DNA from: Candidatus Iainarchaeum sp.
GTDB taxonomy: Archaea; Iainarchaeota; Iainarchaeia; Iainarchaeales; UBA10219
Direction: 5' to 3'
Length of the DNA: 64,000 nucleotides
Assembly (NCBI GenBank): GCA_018304425.1
Contig: JAGVWE010000004.1
Coordinates: forward strand, 123,181-187,180
Positions 5,728-60,475 of the stretch are shown one piece after another. The position numbers and the translations under genes are program-made. A model generated the notes under the pieces. It was not told where the DNA came from. It did no database searches and was given only the letters and a program-made list of their open reading frames with translations. Position 1 is the first letter of the stretch. Every line of letters starts with the position of its first letter.

Positions 5728-7551
5728 TTACACCTTGTCCCCGATTTTCAGTTTGGGGTTGACTCCCAACGCCTTCAGCTCGTCCAACAACAACTTGAAC
5801 CCGTAACTCATCTCAACGGGGTACACCTTGGAGCCGTCGCAGATCGCGCAATACTTCTTGTTCCGGATCTGGTCGTTGATGCCGATGACCCCGCACTTCT
5901 CGCAGACCAGTTCGATGGCCTTGTCCGAGTCCTCGATGAGTTTCTCGTGCAAGAGCATTGCGGCACCGTGGCCCACCAGGGTCTCGCCTTCCATTTCACC
6001 GAAGCGGAGGCCTCCCTCTTTTTCCTTTCCCTCGGTCGGCTGCCGGGTGAGAATCTGCACCGGGCCCCGTGACCGGGCCTGCATCTTGTGCGCGACCATG
6101 TGGAACAGCCGCCGGTAAGCCACGACCCCGGTAAAGATTTCGCCTTCGACCCGTTGCCCGGTCGTGCCATCGTAGAAGACTTCCTTGCCGTCCTCCCGGA
6201 AACCGTGTTCCTTGAGGATATCGGCCATTTCCTGCCTATCGCTTGCCGCGAACGGCGTGCCATCCACTTCCATGGCCTTCAACGAACCGGCCTTGCCTGC
6301 CAGCATTTCCAGCAGGTGCCCCATCGTCATACGGCTTGGCACCGAGTGCGGGTTCAGGATGAGGTCGGGCTTCATGCCGTCCTTCGTGAAAGGCATGTCC
6401 TCTTCGGGGATGATGGCGCCAATGACTCCCTTCTGGCCGTGCCGGGAACTGAACTTGTCGCCCAGCGCGGGCACCATCTCGCTCCGGATCTTCACCTTCA
6501 CCAGCTTGTTGCCAGACTCCCCCTCCGTGACAATGACCTTGTCGACGAAGCCGTGCTTGTTCTTGCGAATCGTGAGACTGCTTTCCCGTCTCTTTTCCTT
6601 GACCACGCCGAACTCCGAGATTTCCTCCAAGAACCTTGGCGGGGACGTCCGGCCCATGATGGCCTCTTTTTCCTGGACAAAGGACTCGACTCTCGGCAGG
6701 CCGTCCTCGGACAAGTGCTTGTAGACTTCCGGGCCCATGAACCCCACTGTTTCCTCGACCGGCACCTCGAACTTGTCAATCTGCCCGCCCGGATACCGGT
6801 TCTCGGCCGCCTCATACGTGCGAAAGTAAGCGCTCCTGGCCAGGCCCCGGTCAATGGCTCCCTTGTTCAACACCACGGCATCCAAGATGTTATACCCATA
6901 ATACGGCATGATGGCCACGACAAAGTTCTGGTTCGTGGGCCGCTTGTGGAGTTCCAGGACATCCATGGTCTTCGTCTTCACCAGCGTTTTCTGGGGATAG
7001 TACAGCAGATAACCCTCCGTGTCCGTGCGCAGGTTGTAGTTGATGCCGCTCAGGCCCTGGGCCTGCTTGAACATCTTGGCCCCGTGCAAGGCCTTTCCAG
7101 CCATGTTGTGCTGCAAGTAGGGAATCATGGACGTGATGACCGATAGGATGCCGATGGCCGCAACCTCGATGTGCGTGTGCTCCTTCGACAACTCCTCTTC
7201 ACCAGTCGCAATCAAGGCGTTCTCCTCTTCTTCCGCGTCCAGGTACTCGATGACGCCCGCATCCACGAGGTCCTGCCAGGCAAGCTTGCCTTCCCTGACC
7301 TGCTTGAGTATCTCCTCGGTCAGCTTGGGCTTGCCGTTCTCGACCACGATGAGCGGCCGCTGCACCCTCCCCGAGTCCGTGTTGATGTAGATTTCGTTCG
7401 TGTCCTCGTGGAACGCGATGTTGACGGAGGGCACGATTTTCCCCTGCCGCCGCCGCTGCACCAGGTCGTGCACGAGCTTCTCGCCGCTGGGGTGGAACCC
7501 AATCAGGCGGCCATTGATGTACACCCTGGACTTGCTTTCCTTCGCGCTCAT
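5728..7551 (-). CDS. rpoB1: RNA polymerase subunit Rpo2C (B')
   Basis: GDKFSSRHGQKG, GGLRFGEME, C-terminal CxxC...CxxC. Confidence 0.97.
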   Translation of the reverse strand: MSAKESKSRVYINGRLIGFHPSGEKLVHDLVQRRRQGKIVPSVNIAFHEDTNEIYINTDSGRVQRPLIVVENGKPKLTEEILKQVREGKLAWQDLVDAGVIEYLDAEEEENALIATGEEELSKEHTHIEVAAIGILSVITSMIPYLQHNMAGKALHGAKMFKQAQGLSGINYNLRTDTEGYLLYYPQKTLVKTKTMDVLELHKRPTNQNFVVAIMPYYGYNILDAVVLNKGAIDRGLARSAYFRTYEAAENRYPGGQIDKFEVPVEETVGFMGPEVYKHLSEDGLPRVESFVQEKEAIMGRTSPPRFLEEISEFGVVKEKRRESSLTIRKNKHGFVDKVIVTEGESGNKLVKVKIRSEMVPALGDKFSSRHGQKGVIGAIIPEEDMPFTKDGMKPDLILNPHSVPSRMTMGHLLEMLAGKAGSLKAMEVDGTPFAASDRQEMADILKEHGFREDGKEVFYDGTTGQRVEGEIFTGVVAYRRLFHMVAHKMQARSRGPVQILTRQPTEGKEKEGGLRFGEMEGETLVGHGAAMLLHEKLIEDSDKAIELVCEKCGVIGINDQIRNKKYCAICDGSKVYPVEMSYGFKLLLDELKALGVNPKLKIGDKV

Positions 7552-7749
7552 TTAAGCTTCACCCGCCACAACTGCCGAGGCGTCAGTTGGCACCGCATAC
7601 GGCCGCCCCATCTCGCTGCTGCTCGATGGGGCATAAATATCTGCCGAGGCGTCAGCCGAGTAGGCCCCCATGGGGGTTGACACCGCAGGCATGCCCCATT
7701 TCGCCCCGAAGGGGTTCGATGGGGCGGTAGGCTTATTGGCCAGCGTCAT
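7552..7749 (-). CDS. 65-aa mini-ORF made of two copies of a palindromic repeat, between rpoB'' and rpoB'
   Basis: ATGA overlap with rpoB'' stop; its TAA abuts the rpoB' ATG; PTAPS..PAV..AYSADASA peptide shared with the PdhC linker. Confidence 0.45.
   Translation of the reverse strand: MTLANKPTAPSNPFGAKWGMPAVSTPMGAYSADASADIYAPSSSSEMGRPYAVPTDASAVVAGEA
7569..7733. repeat. Two tandem copies (one shortened) of a hairpin-forming dispersed repeat
   Basis: ctgccgaggcgtcag at 7572 and 7641, caccgca at 7591 and 7681, gccccat..atggggc stems at 7605-7632 and 7693-7725. Confidence 0.85.
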
Positions 7750-9212
7750 TTCAATTTCACTCCCATGTCCCGCAACATCTTCTCCACCGGGCTTTCATCG
7801 GTTTCCGTGGTTACCTCCGCCAACAAGGCGAGGTTCTTGACCAGCCCACACTGCGGGCCGTCCGGGGTCTCGATGCAGCAGAGCCGGCCCCAATGCGTTC
7901 CATGCACGTCCCTGGCCTCGTACAACTCCCGGTTCTTGTCCAGGGGAGACTTGACCTTCCGCAAATCCGTCAACGGACTCAAATAATTCACGCGGTCCAT
8001 GAACTTGCTCACACCGGTTGCCCTGCCAATCCAGTTGCCGGTGCTCATCGCGAACCTAATTCTCTCCGTTATCGCACCGGGCCTCACCACCGTGCTGATG
8101 TTCAGCTTCCTTCTCCGGGTAACGGTTCGGTCAATCTGGAACTTCAAGTCCTTGATGAAGTACTTGAACGAGTACCGGAACAGGTGCTCCATGAGCTTGC
8201 CCGACAACTCAAGCCGTTTGTTCGCGTAGTGGTCCTTGTCGTCGTCTTCCCTGAGGTTGCTGGCCCGTTCAATGGCCTTGGTGGCCATCATGACCAGGTA
8301 ATAGGCCTTGGCCAGCCGGTCCTTGGGCTCCTGGCCGATGTGCGGCAACAGGAAGGCGTCCACGACTTCCTGCGCGCGCTTCAACCGGTATTCCTCGACC
8401 TGGCCGGGGGCCACGAACTTCCCGATCTTGTCCAGGGCCTCTTCCTCGGTCTTCACCTGCAGGGTCTCCAGGTTAATCAAGGCATCGTTCTCGATTTCCT
8501 TCGGCCCGCCCTCAAAGGCTTCCATGATTTCCCGGTCGTTTTTGAGGCCCAGCGCCTTCAACAACACGAACAACTTGAGCTTCCTCGGCGAGGCCGGGAA
8601 GGTGACGTTCAACGTGCCGTCCGGGTTCCGCAGGATCCTGACGCGGCCCTTGAACGCGCCCCGCGTCGAAATCACTTCCGCGATGATCTTGTCCTGTGCC
8701 TGCTTGGACACGAGCACACGGTCCGAGGCCAGCACTTCCTGGGTCATCAACGCCTTCTCAGAGCCGTTGATGATGAAATAACCGCCAAAGTCCTTGGGGT
8801 CCTCGCCCATCTCGACGAGTTCGTCCCCGGTCTTCCCGTTCAACCAGCACCGGTTCGACTTGAGCATGATGGGCAGTTCCCCGATGTACGCCCTTTTGAC
8901 GTCCTGCTCCACATCCCGCCGCAGCAACCGCATCGTCAAGTAAATGGGCGCCGAGTAAGTCCGGTTCCGGATGCGCGCCTCCATGGGGTAGAAGTTGGTG
9001 CGCGGGCTCCCGTCGGCTTCCACGATTTGGGGCCGGCCCACCTCGATTTTGTCCAACTCGATGCGGACTTCCTCGATTTTGGGCACGATCTGCTTGTTTT
9101 CCTCGACGATTTCGTCGAGCTTCTTGTCCAGGAACTGGTTGAAGCTGTCAATCTCCATCTGAGCAAAATTCCGGTTATGGAAATAGGATTGTACGAGCGG
9201 CCAATTCTTCAT
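7746..9212 (-). CDS. rpoB2: RNA polymerase subunit Rpo2N (B'')
   Basis: GGYFIINGSEK, DDKDHYANKRL, HWGRLCCIETPDGPQCGLVKNL; start reassigned to MKNWPLVQSYF. Confidence 0.97.
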   Translation of the reverse strand: MKNWPLVQSYFHNRNFAQMEIDSFNQFLDKKLDEIVEENKQIVPKIEEVRIELDKIEVGRPQIVEADGSPRTNFYPMEARIRNRTYSAPIYLTMRLLRRDVEQDVKRAYIGELPIMLKSNRCWLNGKTGDELVEMGEDPKDFGGYFIINGSEKALMTQEVLASDRVLVSKQAQDKIIAEVISTRGAFKGRVRILRNPDGTLNVTFPASPRKLKLFVLLKALGLKNDREIMEAFEGGPKEIENDALINLETLQVKTEEEALDKIGKFVAPGQVEEYRLKRAQEVVDAFLLPHIGQEPKDRLAKAYYLVMMATKAIERASNLREDDDKDHYANKRLELSGKLMEHLFRYSFKYFIKDLKFQIDRTVTRRRKLNISTVVRPGAITERIRFAMSTGNWIGRATGVSKFMDRVNYLSPLTDLRKVKSPLDKNRELYEARDVHGTHWGRLCCIETPDGPQCGLVKNLALLAEVTTETDESPVEKMLRDMGVKLK

Positions 9213-9342
9213 TCCAACTAACTCCTTCAACCTTTCTCCGCGAAAAGCCCCGAAGGGCAGGTTGCGGCCGTTCAAAGCCGCAACCGAGGTGGTTAAACCA
9301 ATCCAGTTCAATGGTTTGGAGTTGGTTCAATCAATGCAATGA

Positions 9343-9576
9343 TTACACTACGATCCGGTAGTACACGCTTCTTCCGGCCGTGGGGCTGTGCCGTGTTATC
9401 TTCACGATGTCGCCCCGCTTGGCCCCGATTTCTTCGATGACGGGGTCGTTGGCCAGAATCTGCGGGATTTTTTCGTTGGTGGCGTGGAACGCCTTCAAGA
9501 CTTCCGGAGCCTTGTCCTGTGGCACCACTTCGTGCTTGGGCACCATGAAATGCTGGGACAACTGCTTTAACACCAA
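9343..9576 (-). CDS. rpoH: RNA polymerase subunit Rpo5 (H)
   Basis: HFMVPKHEV...DPVIEEIGAKRGDIVKITRHSPTAGRSVYYRIVV; start uncertain (TTG 9576 or GTG 9573). Confidence 0.93.
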   Translation of the reverse strand: MVLKQLSQHFMVPKHEVVPQDKAPEVLKAFHATNEKIPQILANDPVIEEIGAKRGDIVKITRHSPTAGRSVYYRIVV

Positions 9577-14262: not shown

Positions 14263-15879
14263 TCACGCAGCGGTGTCGACGCAGACCTTCGCGAAGAGGT
14301 CGGCGCCCCCGCCCTGCCAACTCCCGTTCGCGCAGACCTCGGCCTTCCGGCTCTCGTCATAGCACCGGAATTCTCCTTCCTTGCACTCCTTCTCGCCCGT
14401 GAAGGCGCTCACCACGGCCTGGACGATGTTGCGCCTCCCGCACCCCATCTCAAACTCTTTGGGGTCCTGGCTGCGCACCATCTCCCCGGCGCGGCAGTAG
14501 ACCACGGTCCGCTCCTCGGGGTAGCACTTGTACCAGCCTTCCCGGCACGGTTCCCCGAATTTTTCGACGGGCCTCGTGGGCTCCATGGGTTTCATGGGCT
14601 CGGTTCGGGGCATGGGGGTGCCCTTGCCTTCCCCGCCGCTCGACGTTCCAGCCGTCGTTGGCTGGACCGGCATGGGCCTGGGCGGCACCTTTACGCCGGA
14701 GCAGTAGGGGGGCTGCTCGAACACCGGGTTCCAGTTGCCGCCGCTGCAGACCATGACCTTCACGGCGCCGTCATCGCATTCGCCGCGCGTGGGCGGCACG
14801 TAGCCTCTGCACTCCCGAACGCAGTACTCGAGTTTCTCCGGGTATTTGCCGTACTCGCGCCTGCACTTGTCCTTGCAGTCATCGGGCGGCAGCTCGATCG
14901 GTGTTTGTCTCGCCCACTGGCACTGGTTCTTCACGCAGCCGCAGCCCAGGCCGTAGTTGCCCGCGTTGTAGCATTGCCTGGCTTCGCAGGTCGTGGCCCT
15001 GCTTTCTTCTGACCGGCTCTGGCACAACTGGCCCGAGCAGCCTCCGCTCGTGCAGTCCGCGTCGGTCTCGCACTTGCCATAGGTCGAGGAACCGCAGAAC
15101 GCGTCGTTGTCCCCGTCGTCTCGGGCTTCGCATTCCTCGCGGAGGCAGCGCGCGAAAACCGCTTCGTTGATGCCGACGGTTTTCGCATTGGCGACCGTGG
15201 CCGAAACGGTTATCCAGGCCTTTTGCCTGCACCGTTCCTCGCACGAGCTGCCCGTGTCACTGCGCGTCTCACAGCGTTTCCTGTAACAGTCCTGATAGCC
15301 ATTGGGGCCCTCGCTGAGGTAGCACTGGTCCTTGCACGAAATCTCTTGGCCCTCGCACTTGGCTTGTATGCAGAGCCGCGCCTGGTATTCGTCTTTGAAC
15401 TCGCGCTCACAGTAGCCAGCACAACTCTCTATGGGCGCCGGGTCGACGCGTGGCGCGCAGTATTTCGCGTAGTAGTCGGAGGCCGTGTCATACTTCTGGT
15501 ACTCGCCGTTCTGGCACACCGTGACACTGTACTGGTCGCACGTGTATGTGCCTTCCCTGCACGTTACCCGGCGCGTCTGACAATACTTTATGTAGTAATC
15601 AGAGTCGGTGCCGAATTTCTGGTATTCGCCGTTCAGGCAGACCGTGACACTGTACTGGTCGCACGTGTATGTGCCTTCCCCGCACGTTGTCTGTGCACCA
15701 CAATATTTTCTGTAATAGTCTGATGCCGTGTCATACTTCACGTACTCGCCGTTCTGGCAGACCGCTACGCTGCCCTCGTAACAATTGTAGCTGCCTTCCG
15801 CACAGCGCGTGCCTACATCTTGTGCCGTAACGGTTCCTGCAAGCAGCAACAGGAAACCAACCAGCAAAACTCCCTTCAT
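14263..15879 (-). CDS. Secreted Cys-rich repeat protein with an eight-cysteine-cluster domain
   Basis: Signal peptide MKGVLLVGFLLLLAGTVTA; repeats CxEGxYxC..VCxNGEY..DYYxKYC; FCGSSTYGKCETDADCTSGGCSGQLC...CGCVKNQCQW. Confidence 0.85.
   Translation of the reverse strand: MKGVLLVGFLLLLAGTVTAQDVGTRCAEGSYNCYEGSVAVCQNGEYVKYDTASDYYRKYCGAQTTCGEGTYTCDQYSVTVCLNGEYQKFGTDSDYYIKYCQTRRVTCREGTYTCDQYSVTVCQNGEYQKYDTASDYYAKYCAPRVDPAPIESCAGYCEREFKDEYQARLCIQAKCEGQEISCKDQCYLSEGPNGYQDCYRKRCETRSDTGSSCEERCRQKAWITVSATVANAKTVGINEAVFARCLREECEARDDGDNDAFCGSSTYGKCETDADCTSGGCSGQLCQSRSEESRATTCEARQCYNAGNYGLGCGCVKNQCQWARQTPIELPPDDCKDKCRREYGKYPEKLEYCVRECRGYVPPTRGECDDGAVKVMVCSGGNWNPVFEQPPYCSGVKVPPRPMPVQPTTAGTSSGGEGKGTPMPRTEPMKPMEPTRPVEKFGEPCREGWYKCYPEERTVVYCRAGEMVRSQDPKEFEMGCGRRNIVQAVVSAFTGEKECKEGEFRCYDESRKAEVCANGSWQGGGADLFAKVCVDTAA
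15456..15810 (-). repeat. Three tandem ~117-120 bp coding repeats
   Basis: accgtgacactgtactggtcgcacgtgtatgtgccttccc occurs twice; three ~39-aa units. Confidence 0.85.
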
Positions 15880-15955: not shown

Positions 15956-16408
15956 ATGCCTGCCAAAAGGGCCGCGGAGGAAGAGGCTTTCTGTGAAAGC
16001 CTTGCCTCCAAACCCGGGTGGAAGAAGGACTGGGCGGGAAACCTTTTCGTCGTCCACGAGCACCATGCTTCGCGCCTGCACTGGGACTTTCGCCTGGAAC
16101 TCGGCGGCGTCTTGAAGTCCTGGGCCGTGCCCAAGGAGCCCTCCACCGACCCCGCAACCAAGCGCCTGGCGGTTGAAACCGAGGACCACCCGCTGGCCTA
16201 CGCGCGCTTCGAGGGCAACATCCCGGAAGGCAACTACGGTGCCGGCAACGTGAAAATCTGGGACACCGGCAGCTTTGAATTGGCCGAGCGCTCGGACAAA
16301 AAAATTGCGGTTGACTTGAAAGGCAAAAAACTGAAAGGCAAGTTTTTCCTCGTGAAATTCGACCGCGCGGGGCCCAAGAACTGGCTGTTCTTCAAGGGAA
16401 AAGAGTGA
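15956..16408 (+). CDS. Stand-alone LigD 3'-phosphoesterase domain protein
   Basis: FVVHEHHASRLHWDFRLE, LKSWAVPKEP, RLAVETEDHPLAY, YGAGNVKIWDTG. Confidence 0.9.
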   Translation: MPAKRAAEEEAFCESLASKPGWKKDWAGNLFVVHEHHASRLHWDFRLELGGVLKSWAVPKEPSTDPATKRLAVETEDHPLAYARFEGNIPEGNYGAGNVKIWDTGSFELAERSDKKIAVDLKGKKLKGKFFLVKFDRAGPKNWLFFKGKE

Positions 16409-16413
16409 GCCCC

Positions 16414-17003: not shown

Positions 17004-17068
17004 ACTAATCTATTGGCTGGCCAAGTATATAATCATTACCTTTCACTAATCAGGTAAGTCCGGAAAAA

Positions 17069-17110
17069 GCCGGGCCCAGGCACTGGCTGTTTTTCAAGGG
17101 AAAGGAATAG
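17069..17110 (+). repeat. Diverged duplicate of the LigD-PE gene 3' end (16367-16408)
   Basis: 34/42 nt identical; AGPRHWLFFKGKE* vs AGPKNWLFFKGKE*. Confidence 0.85.
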
Positions 17111-17155
17111 TCGTCCTTGGCAATTACGTTTATATAGTGGTTCAGCAACCCTTGT

Positions 17156-39877: not shown

Positions 39878-41245
39878 CTATATGACCTCCAAGAGCATGG
39901 CATAGGGGTCTTCCAAATGCTTTTTAACCTCGTTCACGAACCGCGCCGCCAGGGCCCCGTCCACCACGCGGTGGTCAAAGGAGAGGCTCACGTTCATCAC
40001 GTGCCGCAAGAGTATCCGGTCTTCGACTACGCGCGGCAGCTTCCGAATCGTGCCCAGCGCCAGGATGGCGACTTCCGGGTAGTTGACCACGGCAATGCCT
40101 CCGATGCCGCCCACCGAACCAATGTTCGTAATCGTGAAGGTGCCCCCCCGTAGGTCCCCCAAGGCAATCTTCCGCTCCCTGGCCAGCGCAGCTTTCTCCG
40201 AAATCTCTTTCGCGATTTCGAGGATGCTCTTCTGGTCCGCGTCCTTGACGACGGGCACCATCAACCCGTCCGGCGTGTCCACGGCGATTCCAACGTTGTA
40301 ATACTTTTTCAGCACGATTTCCTGTTTCCCCTCGTCGAGGCTCGCGTTCACGTACGGGAACTCCTTCAACGCGTGCGCGACCGCTTTCGCGATGAACGCC
40401 AGGTAGGTCAGTTTCACGCCCTGCCTTTCCGCGCGCGCCTTCTCCTTCTCGCGCGCCTCCACCAACTCGCTGACGTCCACTTCGTCGAATTGCACGGCAG
40501 TGGGCACCATCCAGTTGCTGCGCGACATGTTTTCCGCGATTTTCTTCCGCAACCCCTTCAAGGCCACGCGCTCCTCTTCCCCGGTCGCCAGCCACGACGC
40601 CTTCTCAAACGCGGGCAACGCCATGCCCCCCGCCGCGGCCGCCCCTGCTTGCGGTGACACGCTTCCCCCTCCCCCCGCAAACCGTTTCACGTCCTCGTCG
40701 GTAATCCTTCCAGCCGGCCCGGTGCCGGGCACGCGTTTAATGTCCACTCCCAGCTCGCGGGCCAGTTGCCGGGTGTGCGGCATGGCCAGCACCTGGCTGG
40801 GAACCTGCATGGGCTCAAAGGCGGCTGCCGATGCGTCAGCCGAGTAGGCGGCCACCTTCGGGGCCCCCGGCACCGCAGGCGTGCCCCCTCTCGCCATGCT
40901 CGAGGGGGCGGTAGGCTGGGCCTTGGAAACGGTTGCAGTCGGCGCCTTCGCCTGGGCAGCCGGAGGCGTAACCGCCGGAGCCGCCGCAGGCCCCGCATAC
41001 TTTTCCCCTGCCGAGCCAATCGTCACCAGGACTTCGCCGACCTTGATGGTGTCCCCGACCTTCGCGTGCAACTTGAGCACGGTTCCGGCTTTCGGGCACG
41101 GGATTTCAACGACGGCTTTGTCGGTTTCCACGTTGGCAATGGCTTGGTCGGCCTTGACGACATCGCCTTCCTTCACGAGCCACTCCACCAGTTCCCCTTC
41201 GTGGATGCCTTCGCCGACGTCCGGGAACTTGAAGTCAAAAGCCAT
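39878..41245 (-). CDS. pdhC: 2-oxoacid dehydrogenase E2 acyltransferase
   Basis: Lipoyl VETDKA, E3-binding GTGPAGRIT, DHRVVDG. Confidence 0.94.
   Translation of the reverse strand: MAFDFKFPDVGEGIHEGELVEWLVKEGDVVKADQAIANVETDKAVVEIPCPKAGTVLKLHAKVGDTIKVGEVLVTIGSAGEKYAGPAAAPAVTPPAAQAKAPTATVSKAQPTAPSSMARGGTPAVPGAPKVAAYSADASAAAFEPMQVPSQVLAMPHTRQLARELGVDIKRVPGTGPAGRITDEDVKRFAGGGGSVSPQAGAAAAGGMALPAFEKASWLATGEEERVALKGLRKKIAENMSRSNWMVPTAVQFDEVDVSELVEAREKEKARAERQGVKLTYLAFIAKAVAHALKEFPYVNASLDEGKQEIVLKKYYNVGIAVDTPDGLMVPVVKDADQKSILEIAKEISEKAALARERKIALGDLRGGTFTITNIGSVGGIGGIAVVNYPEVAILALGTIRKLPRVVEDRILLRHVMNVSLSFDHRVVDGALAARFVNEVKKHLEDPYAMLLEVI
40823..40917. repeat. Copy of the hairpin repeat, in-frame in the E2 linker
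   Basis: Blocks of 24/25, 22/25 and 17/18 nt identical to 7641-7733. Confidence 0.88.
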
Positions 41246-46569: not shown

Positions 46570-46821
46570 ATGCCTTACTTCGTCTACCTCCTCGAGTGCC
46601 GCGACCAAAGCCTCTACTGTGGTTACACCTCGGACCTCGGAAAGCGCGTGGCCGCCCACAATGCGGGCAGGGGAGGGAGGTACACGCGCACCCACTTGCC
46701 CGTCAAACTCGTCTACTCCGAGAAAGCCCGCACCCGCCTCCAAGCCATGCGAAGGGAACGCGAAATCAAGGGCTATTCGCGGAAGAAAAAGCAGGCGCTG
46801 ATTGAAGAAAAAAGAAAATAA
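46570..46821 (+). CDS. Small GIY-YIG nuclease (UPF0213/YazA-like)
   Basis: [26 protein letters not shown]. Confidence 0.9.
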
Positions 46822-46843
46822 GGCGTCCCCTTGTGGGGACAAG

Positions 46844-46998
46844 CGCCCTGGCCGGGAATCGAACCCGGGTCTCCACCGCGCTGCAACCCATTTTGCGGGC
46901 CCCGCAGGGTTGTCCCATGCCCCGCATGGGACGTTTCCGCAAACCCTTTGTAAAAGGGTTTTGACAGGGTGGAATCCTGGCCGCTAGACTACCAGAGC
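46844..46998 (-). tRNA. tRNA-Asp(GTC) with 83-nt intron at 37/38 (46879-46961)
   Basis: Acceptor GCTCTGG/CCAGGGC, anticodon arm CCACC-CT-GTC-A^C-GGTGG, T-loop GGTTCGATTCC; BHB helix CTGT/GCAG. Confidence 0.95.
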
Positions 46999-59577: not shown

Positions 59578-59646
59578 ACCGCGTCCAGGCCGGGTTCAAC
59601 CGCGGCTTTAAACCGTCGGCTTTAAATTAACCATTCCCTCCTAAAT

Positions 59647-59769
59647 CATCAGTTATACGAGTAAACTAGTTCAGTGGGTTTTGCCCACCTTTTTTCCCAA
59701 GGCTTTTTACCTCGGCAAAAAGGCTTTTCTAGTTTCAGTCGTATAGTCTAAAAAAAGGAGTTAGAAACA
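59647..59769 (+). promoter_or_regulatory. Conserved structured 5' leader, copy 1 (55-nt loop expansion)
   Basis: TATA-like TTTAAATTA at 59621; stem TATACGA-GT-AAACTAG / CTAGTTT-CAG-TCGTATA; AAGGAG Shine-Dalgarno. Confidence 0.75.
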
Positions 59770-59922
59770 ATGGGATTCCAAGGCGGATCTTTTGGTGGTC
59801 CAAGGGAAATGTTCCCCGCGACCTGCTCTGACTGCGGACAAGAAACACAGGTTCCATTCAAGCCCACCGAGGGCAGGCCTGTCTACTGCAGGGACTGCTA
59901 CCAGAAGCACAAGAAGTTCTAA
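59770..59922 (+). CDS. CxxC-x17-CxxC zinc-ribbon mini-protein, copy 1 (absent from the ORF track)
   Basis: MGFQGGSFGGPREMFPATCSDCGQETQVPFKPTEGRPVYCRDCYQKHKKF. Confidence 0.92.
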   Translation: MGFQGGSFGGPREMFPATCSDCGQETQVPFKPTEGRPVYCRDCYQKHKKF

Positions 59923-60137
59923 ACCCATCCAGGCTTAGATGGCTAGCGAGGGCCCCCCAAAAAGGGGGCAAGAAACTAGGCAAACACCATTTTTTTCTTT
60001 TTATTTTCAACGGTTCTTGCCGGTAGGCCGCCGGTGTTCCGGGTCGTTTCCCCCCTTGCACCACTGGCTAGGCCCAGGCGGTTTACCCGTTTTAACCCCA
60101 AACCATGGGGTTTAAATTAGCCACGGGCCCATTAATC

Positions 60138-60205
60138 CATCAGTTATACGAGTAAACTAGTTTTCTAGTTTCAGTCGTATAGTCTAAAAAAAGGAGTTAG
60201 AAACA
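60138..60205 (+). promoter_or_regulatory. Conserved structured 5' leader, copy 2
   Basis: TATA-like TTTAAATTA at 60111; same stem closed by a TTTT loop. Confidence 0.75.
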
Positions 60206-60358
60206 ATGGGATTCCAAGGTGGATCTTTTGGTGGCCCTAGGGAAATGCACCCGGCTACTTGTTCTGACTGCGGCAAGGAAACAACGGTTCCCTTCAAGCC
60301 GACAGAGGGCAAGCCAGTCTACTGCAGAGACTGCTACCAAAAGCACAAGAAATACTAA
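60206..60358 (+). CDS. CxxC-x17-CxxC zinc-ribbon mini-protein, copy 2 (absent from the ORF track)
   Basis: MGFQGGSFGGPREMHPATCSDCGKETTVPFKPTEGKPVYCRDCYQKHKKY. Confidence 0.92.
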   Translation: MGFQGGSFGGPREMHPATCSDCGKETTVPFKPTEGKPVYCRDCYQKHKKY

Positions 60359-60475
60359 AACCTCTTTTCTCACCCGCAAGGGCTGAAACTAGGAACAACG
60401 CGTTTTTTTCGATTTCTTCTTTTTCTTTACCCTGTTGTGAGCCGTGAGGCTGAATTAGCCGCCGCTTTCATGCAA

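Follow-up and report, generated by a model that had tools for sequence, protein, structure and literature searches.

A gene-less hairpin element of Iainarchaeales is found with long, often silently recoded duplications of its target

A family of gene-less hairpin elements of 60–95 nt is dispersed through the genome of a Candidatus Iainarchaeum sp. (GenBank assembly GCA_018304425.1, here G000) and through related genomes, and at part of its sites the element lies between two copies of a long stretch of its target that often encode the same peptide with different codons. We consider it slightly better than an even bet (probability about 0.55) that such an element enters by one-sided integration, as part of a single strand that also holds a homologous arm from another lineage. 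The work started from a stretch of 64,000 nt (contig JAGVWE010000004.1, positions 123,181 to 187,180; hereafter the window), in which a first-pass annotation had noticed a three-copy hairpin repeat but had overlooked its main feature, the long, silently diverged target duplication. The family is real, and its footprint is unusual for a small non-autonomous repeat. In the literature covered, largely outside subscription papers and supplements, we found no published account of it.

The three copies, two in tandem and one in pdhC, are present at the positions claimed (Table 1), all on the minus strand, which is the sense strand of the genes, in a window with archaeal gene content (split rpoB genes and a pyruvate dehydrogenase cluster). 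Copy 1 consists of a hairpin 1 with tandem G.A, a middle hairpin and a hairpin 2 that abuts copy 2, which in turn has an 8-bp hairpin 1 with tandem G.A, a linker and a 5-bp hairpin 2. Of the shared blocks, those of 24/25 and 17/18 nt were recovered as the best ungapped ones between copy 1 and the pdhC copy, and the quoted hairpins are present in the sequence and predicted as DNA folds, with z-scores of −2.7 and −3.9 for the tandem copies; despite a z-score of −0.7 for the whole GC-rich pdhC copy, its first and last hairpins are still in the centroid fold. Rfam gave no match in the window at the gathering score.

Real as they are, these copies belong to a much larger family of about 30 copies in the source genome. 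A combination of BLAST, motif scan and HMM listed 29 copies in the 1.48-Mb genome; an HMM of these recovered all 29 at E ≤ 0.043 (best match in the reversed genome, E 1.9), and a covariance model built from 19 copies gave 32 matches at E ≤ 1, including two that the earlier searches had not listed. Each copy comprises a left motif, an 8-bp stem, a linker of ~16 nt and a 5-bp second stem. G.A caps the 8-bp stem, in some copies within a triloop and in others as a tandem followed by a short inner stem; hairpin 1 ranges from 19 to 35 nt. Type B contains a TATA-like motif, and an AT box is absent from type A. Some copies lie within coupled operons and some, in antisense, at the 3′ ends of genes and tRNAs, 13 of 28 right ends in G000 lie within 6 nt of a tRNA end, and several leader copies have, by eye, a separate AT-rich box ~50 nt upstream. 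One further variant copy (G000:C3:228876–228924, minus strand) comes after the tRNA-Leu(CAG) 3′ end, which is present a second time, as a duplicate, behind the copy. A replication-strand bias (~23/30 copies on the G-rich strand) was rejected as separate evidence, since the copies antisense to their neighbour split 6/11 (hand count) and the bias thus follows gene orientation.

At E ≤ 0.01 the model matched 42 of 151 genomes of the order, and in a sample of the phylum 27/151 genomes had a match, every one from the same order. A strict pattern applied to one genome per species found 25 loci, of which the model confirmed 14, all archaeal and six named Candidatus Iainarchaeum, and none of the ten bacterial loci nor the single bathyarchaeal one. 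A metagenome scan used a linker pattern that proved too loose, with 0/120 stretches resembling real copies; in viral contigs the same pattern gave four chance matches and two stricter patterns gave none. From the relatives, part of the matches was fetched and 100 loci were searched, with eight fetched loci left out, yielding 127 copies. In an alignment of 123 distinct copies fitted to the model, with which MAFFT alignments agree, 97.1% of the cells pair, double changes occur at all 15 modelled pairs, and no shuffle reaches the covariation score. The covariation first proposed from the window thus extends to all 15 pairs, and the copies in G000 and its relatives, together with the covarying stems, bear out the idea of a non-autonomous, dispersed, archaeal element held by its structure.

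The loops resemble those of small DNA hairpins. DNA mini-hairpins of the GCGNAGC type close via a sheared G-A pair, have RNA counterparts that are much less stable, and are found at phage priming sites and promoters, according to the part of a review that treats them (PMC13037366). Among the copies of the element the cap is G.A in 106/123 and A.A in 10/123, the triloops are GNA in 69/82 and AAA in 10/82, 14 of 16 inner triloops are GAA, AAA or GCA, and there are 22 G-U pairs against 1473 Watson–Crick pairs. From the G-A caps, the GNA triloops and the scarce G-U pairs we infer that the element folds as single-stranded DNA on one defined strand, which is a signature in the sequence and not a measurement. 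The gap in folding energy between the strands is small and does not decide between DNA and RNA.

The rpoB″/rpoB′ junction was compared with that of 37 relatives. From the rpoB″ stop to residue 10 of RpoB′ there are 14–63 nt in 29/37 relatives and 221 nt here, so that the short, empty orthologous sites that had been suggested for comparison do exist. The insert of 198 nt is made up of 163 nt of elements and a ~34-nt duplicate of the junction, and the insertion junction coincides with the right end of copy 2. The left junction copy holds the working rpoB″ end (MGVKLK-stop), an overlapping ATG and 13 diverged nt; the right junction copy, directly after copy 2, holds spare VKLK-stop codons, two of them silently different from the rpoB″ end, together with the ribosome-binding motif and the working start of rpoB′. 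A genome of another family, G016, has a type-B-like copy within one base of the same position, recognised by eye and given no score by the model, which also precedes a spare VKLK-stop, and the right copy in G000 equals the gene end of G016. In G004 a duplicated rpoB″ end surrounds a different hairpin. The cases of G016 and G004 indicate that this junction was struck more than once. A shared ancient insertion in G000 and G016 was rejected, because the RpoB′ tree (a quick tree, the careful search being unfinished) does not group them and three family-mates of G016 are empty. The 18 sequencing runs listed include no RNA run. Contigs from four of them over window positions 6000–9500 showed no insert-skipping joint among the 15 of 28 joints listed, and one contig, from a run that is possibly the source, spans the rpoB insert unchanged; contigs drop rare variants and are therefore uninformative on empty alleles.

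Table 1. Element copies, host genes and junction repeats in the 64,000-nt window
Feature	Position	Strand	Remarks
Copy 1	7641..7733	−	Type A (CTACC left motif)
Copy 2	7570..7640	−	Type B (AT-rich left motif); E 3.5e-15 in a model built with it
Copy 3	40823..40917	−	Type A, three hairpins, inside pdhC
rpoB″ (Rpo2 N-terminal part), upstream host gene	7746..9311	−	Start codon provisional
rpoB′ (Rpo2 C-terminal part), downstream host gene	5728..7551	−	
pdhC (dihydrolipoamide acetyltransferase), host gene of copy 3	39878..41245	−	
65-codon bridge ORF	7552..7749	−	Through both tandem copies
Left junction copy	7733..7766	−	Cross-locus p 0.003
Right junction copy	7535..7569	−	Spare VKLK-stop codons

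Long duplications of this kind recur among the relatives. In a test of 100 intact copies (the 127 minus 27 with a broken second stem or short flanks), 23 have a duplication of 22–81 nt from the element's right end (score ≥12), corresponding to ~19 separate sites; all 23 start 0–5 nt from the right end and recur upstream of the left motif. Among 1184 cross-locus pairs this score was reached by 0.4%, and in the two shifted controls by 0 and 2 copies out of 100. A stretch of 15–60 nt begins at the fixed right end and recurs 22–97 nt upstream of the element. Because the duplications were sought by similarity near the right end, their polarity of an identical core and a diverged tail is partly built in. 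In G000, duplications of 97 nt (C1:16015) and 78 nt (C6:128899) were found, and further clear ones at C3:313675 and at the rpoB site of the window. Of the two longest cases, one falls where a PD-(D/E)XK nuclease gene starts and the other where a geranylgeranyl-reductase-like gene ends. Over 28 G000 sites taken together, a 45-nt anchored test did not reach significance (permutation p 0.13); by rank, four sites lay below or close to 0.02. No duplication was detectable at 77/100 relative copies, at the pdhC copy and at most G000 copies. In relatives, at L201 and L269 (G019), the element and its duplicated flank of 24 or 35 nt together form the repeating unit of head-to-tail arrays.

Where the duplicated stretch is a gene terminus, the two copies differ mainly in silent positions. 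Over 14 sites, 95 codons are identical, 41 synonymous and 13 non-synonymous; these sites were selected for visible duplication, with one orthologous site dropped, two G000 sites re-framed by hand, and the window site and L036, which encloses a hairpin that the model does not recognise, added. Among codons with a single-base difference 34/39 are silent (p 1.3e-8 against the 43% expected if one copy drifted freely and the other silently), and the bias persists without the two strongest sites (20/25 silent, p 1.8e-4 against 43%). At C1:16015, nine consecutive codons are all silently different beside 11 identical ones, and in the tails at L270 and C6, 7/8 and 4/4 codons differ with the peptide kept. 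The silent excess over 43% makes the spare copy look like a former working allele. Of the silently differing codons, 13/41 end in G/C in the left copy and 24/41 in the right copy, compared with 72% G/C at third positions in G000 gene ends; these counts, and the match of the rpoB right copy to G016, are two hints, neither strong, that the left copy is the newcomer. No filled and empty pair from one species was seen, so that the direction and the donor are putative.

One-sided integration would account for this footprint as follows. The element would fold as single-stranded DNA, and the incoming strand would contain, besides the element, a left arm copied from the corresponding locus of another lineage. 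The left arm would pair with the resident gene and replace the gene end, the right end of the element would be joined to the target where the paired stretch begins, and the resident gene end would remain as the right copy. The right joint would most likely be made by host recombination, flap or repair proteins that recognise DNA hairpins, and not by an element-encoded transposase. Import of this kind needs an oddly distant yet protein-identical donor, with identical peptides and saturated silent sites, and homology arms alone do not explain the exact abutting of tRNA ends (13/28). The broader proposal, that these are a new class of gene-less homing elements of DPANN archaea that spread between lineages, with an arm captured from the host junction at each locus, silently recoded ends of essential genes and host proteins only, we put forward tentatively, as holding rather less than an even chance; in that case tRNA leaders, and occasionally protein linkers, would be seeded by this module as well.

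The same repeats could instead arise if some enzyme cut at a wide stagger and filled in a long duplication, all later differences being drift and the silent bias coming from constraint on the spare copy (a ribosome-binding site, a bridge ORF or repeated excision). Several duplications are indeed perfect or nearly so (L210, L272, L269 and L215), the spare codons at rpoB could be under constraint from the ribosome-binding motif and the rpoB′ start, with which they overlap, and long, variable duplications without a known mobile gene are described for restriction-modification genes, as the relevant part of a survey describes (PMC2853133). We nevertheless judge this explanation unlikely, as the spares at C1:16015 (9/9), L270 and C6 keep the peptide without an evident role and the bias does not depend on the two strongest sites.

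In a screen of 1313 genes of G000, nine gene ends were found repeated, and only one of these encloses the present hairpin family; the others enclose another hairpin family or small gene cassettes. As duplicated gene ends flank other cargo in G000, a general integration route is suggested to exist that the hairpin element exploits, and the duplication may not necessarily be caused by the hairpins. This one-in-nine count, the right ends close to tRNAs and the TATA-like motif of type B would also suit hairpins that are mere passengers, or promoter or leader cassettes, moved by a general host process that duplicates its target, their structure being kept for an RNA or promoter role near tRNAs and operons. 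That seems to us a decidedly weaker candidate: the statistics of loops and pairs are DNA-like, type A lacks the AT box, hairpin 1 varies in length, copies are found within coupled operons and, in antisense, at the 3′ ends of genes and tRNAs, several leader copies appear to have their own AT-rich box, and the duplication begins at the element's own right end.

Among other repeats of the window, the last codons of a gene for a LigD phosphoesterase domain (16366–16410, plus strand) recur 702 nt later (17068–17112, plus strand) with five silent and two residue-changing codon differences, around an AT-rich 660-nt cassette that has a MazE/AbrB-like (antitoxin-like) ORF and not this hairpin family. 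Elsewhere in G000, repeated gene ends at C1:480888, C1:231787 and C5:193837 surround the second hairpin family or small gene cassettes. The window also holds a tandem duplicate of a gene for a 50-residue treble-clef zinc finger with its leader (59642–59926 and 60133–60362, plus strand), the first leader having an extra hairpin block, and a 108-nt repeat in three units spaced 120–123 nt apart within a long ORF without Pfam match (15458–15808).

The fixed right end combined with variable duplications also recalls target-primed reverse transcription. If leader or intron RNAs ending at the element's right end were reverse-transcribed at nicks, the right end would be fixed while the left end and the duplications would vary, and tRNA 5′ processing would release copies lying 5′ of tRNAs with exactly this 3′ end. 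We hold an RNA-mediated route to be very improbable, given DNA-type loops, the absence of a match to RVT_1 in G000 (92.6% complete), where Cas1 gave no match either, and silently recoded arms that it leaves unexplained.

Candidate enzymes in G000 are a TnpB, the product of a small GIY-YIG gene and, encoded at the end of a contig, a TnpA of the IS200 type. The first-pass annotation had stated that no transposase is present in the window; 16 + 12 + 3 proteins were scanned, and the single Y1 transposase match of G000 lies on another contig. It had also named as analogues the REP hairpins spread by HUH nucleases of the RAYT/IS200 type; on that view the element would be REP-like or derive from IS200/IS605, and a Y1 enzyme would mobilise it in trans. 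Single-stranded DNA hairpins do suit HUH enzymes, the right end of the multicopy IS200-type element of G000 shares, by eye, a short motif with the linker of some copies, and there is a weak association at the level of genomes, Y1 genes being found in 18/41 element-bearing and 24/109 other genomes (Fisher p 0.013, with kin not independent). Several results speak against spread by such an enzyme. No element-model match was found in 40 Y1 loci, weak RAYT-like hits included, nor at the IS200 contig end (L001), and a transposase flanked by the same hairpins did not turn up in these loci. The Y1 enzyme of G000 passes the IS200 cut-off but scores 33.7 bits as a RAYT, against a cut-off of 80. Four of seven relatives with at least five copies have no Y1 match, including G016, whose genome is closed, 99% complete and contains 10 copies. 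To our knowledge, HUH insertion leaves no target duplication. Movement in trans by a Y1 enzyme is therefore, in our estimate, highly doubtful.

The multicopy IS200-type element breaks the assembly at the starts of contigs C1, C4 and C7 of G000, following a tyrosine-recombinase-like ORF fragment at the start of C1. TnpB was considered as the enzyme and rejected, since a single copy lies ~670 nt downstream of it, beyond two other ORFs, and no link was shown. Homologues of the small GIY-YIG gene occur in 16/151 genomes, with element copies within 300 nt at 1/16 loci and a weak copy ~1 kb away at one further locus. At L313 (G040:C60:1–572) three copies, two of them back to back, lie directly upstream of a GIY-YIG gene. 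In the window, the small GIY-YIG gene (46570–46824, plus strand) converges on an intron-containing tRNA-Asp (46843–46998, minus strand), and hairpins lie between the two and also fill the tRNA-Asp intron.

At rpoB″/rpoB′ an ORF of 65 codons runs from an ATG that overlaps the rpoB″ stop and duplicates the rpoB′ start to a TAA directly before the ATG of rpoB′, without a match in Pfam or NCBIfam. Such bridge ORFs are found at 5/5 tight operon junctions in G000, including rpl3-rpl4 and rpl23-rpl2, where they read through the element and stop 0–8 nt before the next start (chance in shuffles 0.14–0.36 for each), and at 3/4 ATGA-coupled junctions of relatives, where they share the frame of the spare stop. 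A further six gene-end sites in relatives lack such an ORF. We infer that bridge ORFs reflect selection for kept coupling and not for a peptide. Under one-sided integration, the duplicated start codon at a coupled junction such as rpoB″/rpoB′ would open a short ORF, and insertions would survive mainly where its frame stays open across the hairpins and closes next to the following start.

Both loci in the window do translate with the pattern PTAPS..PAV..AYSADASA, but of the claim that the repeat is translated at two loci only the pdhC copy stands as part of a protein, the frame at 7552–7749 being an intergenic ORF without a known protein match. The same frame is a weak sign of a conserved peptide, as two of three frames are open in both window loci and L212 is in another frame; hairpin 1 starts at codon position 1 in 6/6 translated G000 sites. 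In pdhC the element is in frame as about residues 111–141, in the linker between the lipoyl and E3-binding domains. This linker has 56 residues, compared with 36, 47, 46 and 54 (hand count) in the four closest homologues (70–76% identity), and as it is only 2–20 residues longer, the 31 codons of the element seem mostly to have replaced a Pro/Ala/Thr linker rather than to have lengthened PdhC. The Pro/Thr/Ala/Ser-rich frame would suit a flexible linker, and the element may have survived there for that reason. No element was found at 13 orthologous pdhC loci of the order, all distant. A PdhC cluster member has four residue differences inside the element and others elsewhere, its source quality being uncertain. 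The suggestion that the element creates new peptide sequence accordingly applies to pdhC, the sole true in-protein case, and is weak overall: among 28 G000 sites only this copy is inside a predicted gene, and the one copy in an open frame among 109 in relatives lies beside a tRNA and in antisense and is probably spurious.

Small archaeal genomes are thought to be poor in repeats, yet here an element of 60–95 nt can enter some of the most constrained operons, such as those for RNA polymerase and ribosomal proteins, as well as tRNA genes, without breaking them: the junction is duplicated, a working gene end would be supplied, and translation would be kept coupled via a bridge ORF. If the recoded arms were imported, each copy would document that lineages of uncultured archaea had exchanged DNA, and would mark the gene ends concerned. 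With its fixed right end and DNA-type hairpins, the element offers a defined substrate for finding the joining protein. In annotation, such inserts give rise to spurious small ORFs and spare gene ends.

Among known systems, the REP/BIME repeats with their RAYT proteins are short dispersed palindromes with conserved mismatches, tandem mosaics and a probable function as single-stranded DNA, and, at its 5′ foot, the folding strand of a REP carries a GTAG/GGAG tetranucleotide. With these and with the miniatures of IS200/IS605 the element shares dispersed palindromes, conserved mismatches and tandem mosaics and, with REP, an imperfect palindrome with a single-stranded DNA fold (here a computed signature). 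Unlike REP, its 5′ foot on the strand with the G.A cap is CTACC, TTATC/TTATT or TTTAT, with no GTAG, and in contrast to REP/RAYT it has long target duplications and no adjacent Y1 gene. Its ends do not match the IS200 ends of G000 apart from the short linker motif, and its duplications of 22–97 nt set it apart from IS200/IS605 miniatures, for which we know of no duplication. Flanking direct repeats are shared with young MITEs, although those of the element are long, variable and often recoded.

When prophage e14 integrates at icd, the incoming end replaces the gene end and the resident fragment is displaced. The element likewise lies between a working gene end and a spare copy, corresponding to icdC, and excision of e14 recombines the two, as described in part of an account of it (PMC13626634). 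Unlike the 15-kb prophage at its one site in that account, the element has its own arm at each of many unrelated loci and carries no recombinase. Homology-facilitated illegitimate recombination, as the part of the paper concerned presents it, is a general event that is not bound to a conserved hairpin end (PMC3240628). Classical MITEs have terminal inverted repeats of about 4–30 bp, in the section of a review devoted to them (PMC10969869), whereas the ends of the element are a left motif and an internal 5-bp hairpin that are not mutual inverted copies. In pdhC the element resembles the Rickettsia palindromic elements, palindromes that lie in frame within host proteins, nearly half of which are involved in frame fusions in an example from the same review (PMC10969869), but it is in-protein in a single case among ~140 copies examined. 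The Ssn/NTS repeats (Chenal et al. 2025, PMC11893778) likewise combine a strand-specific hairpin with a conserved flank, and they act as single-stranded DNA and are tied to natural transformation; no duplication is described in the part of that paper on NTS, and here copies lie within 300 nt at just 1/16 small GIY-YIG loci.

The long duplications have their counterpart in restriction-modification genes, whose insertion with long target duplication, according to a survey (Furuta et al. 2010, PMC2853133), occurs for the most part in species that are naturally competent; by its own statement, no archaeal case passed the selection of that survey. In both systems a long, variable direct repeat of a unique target occurs with no transposase or integrase attached. 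By a criterion of a direct repeat of >30 bp that matches a unique empty site, with no mobile gene inside, the repeat lengths fit, as do the empty junctions, which are those of other families. The inserts in the survey are gene cargo of kilobases, with tabulated repeats that are nearly identical, whereas the insert described here is a hairpin of 60–95 nt with a fixed right end and silently recoded repeats.
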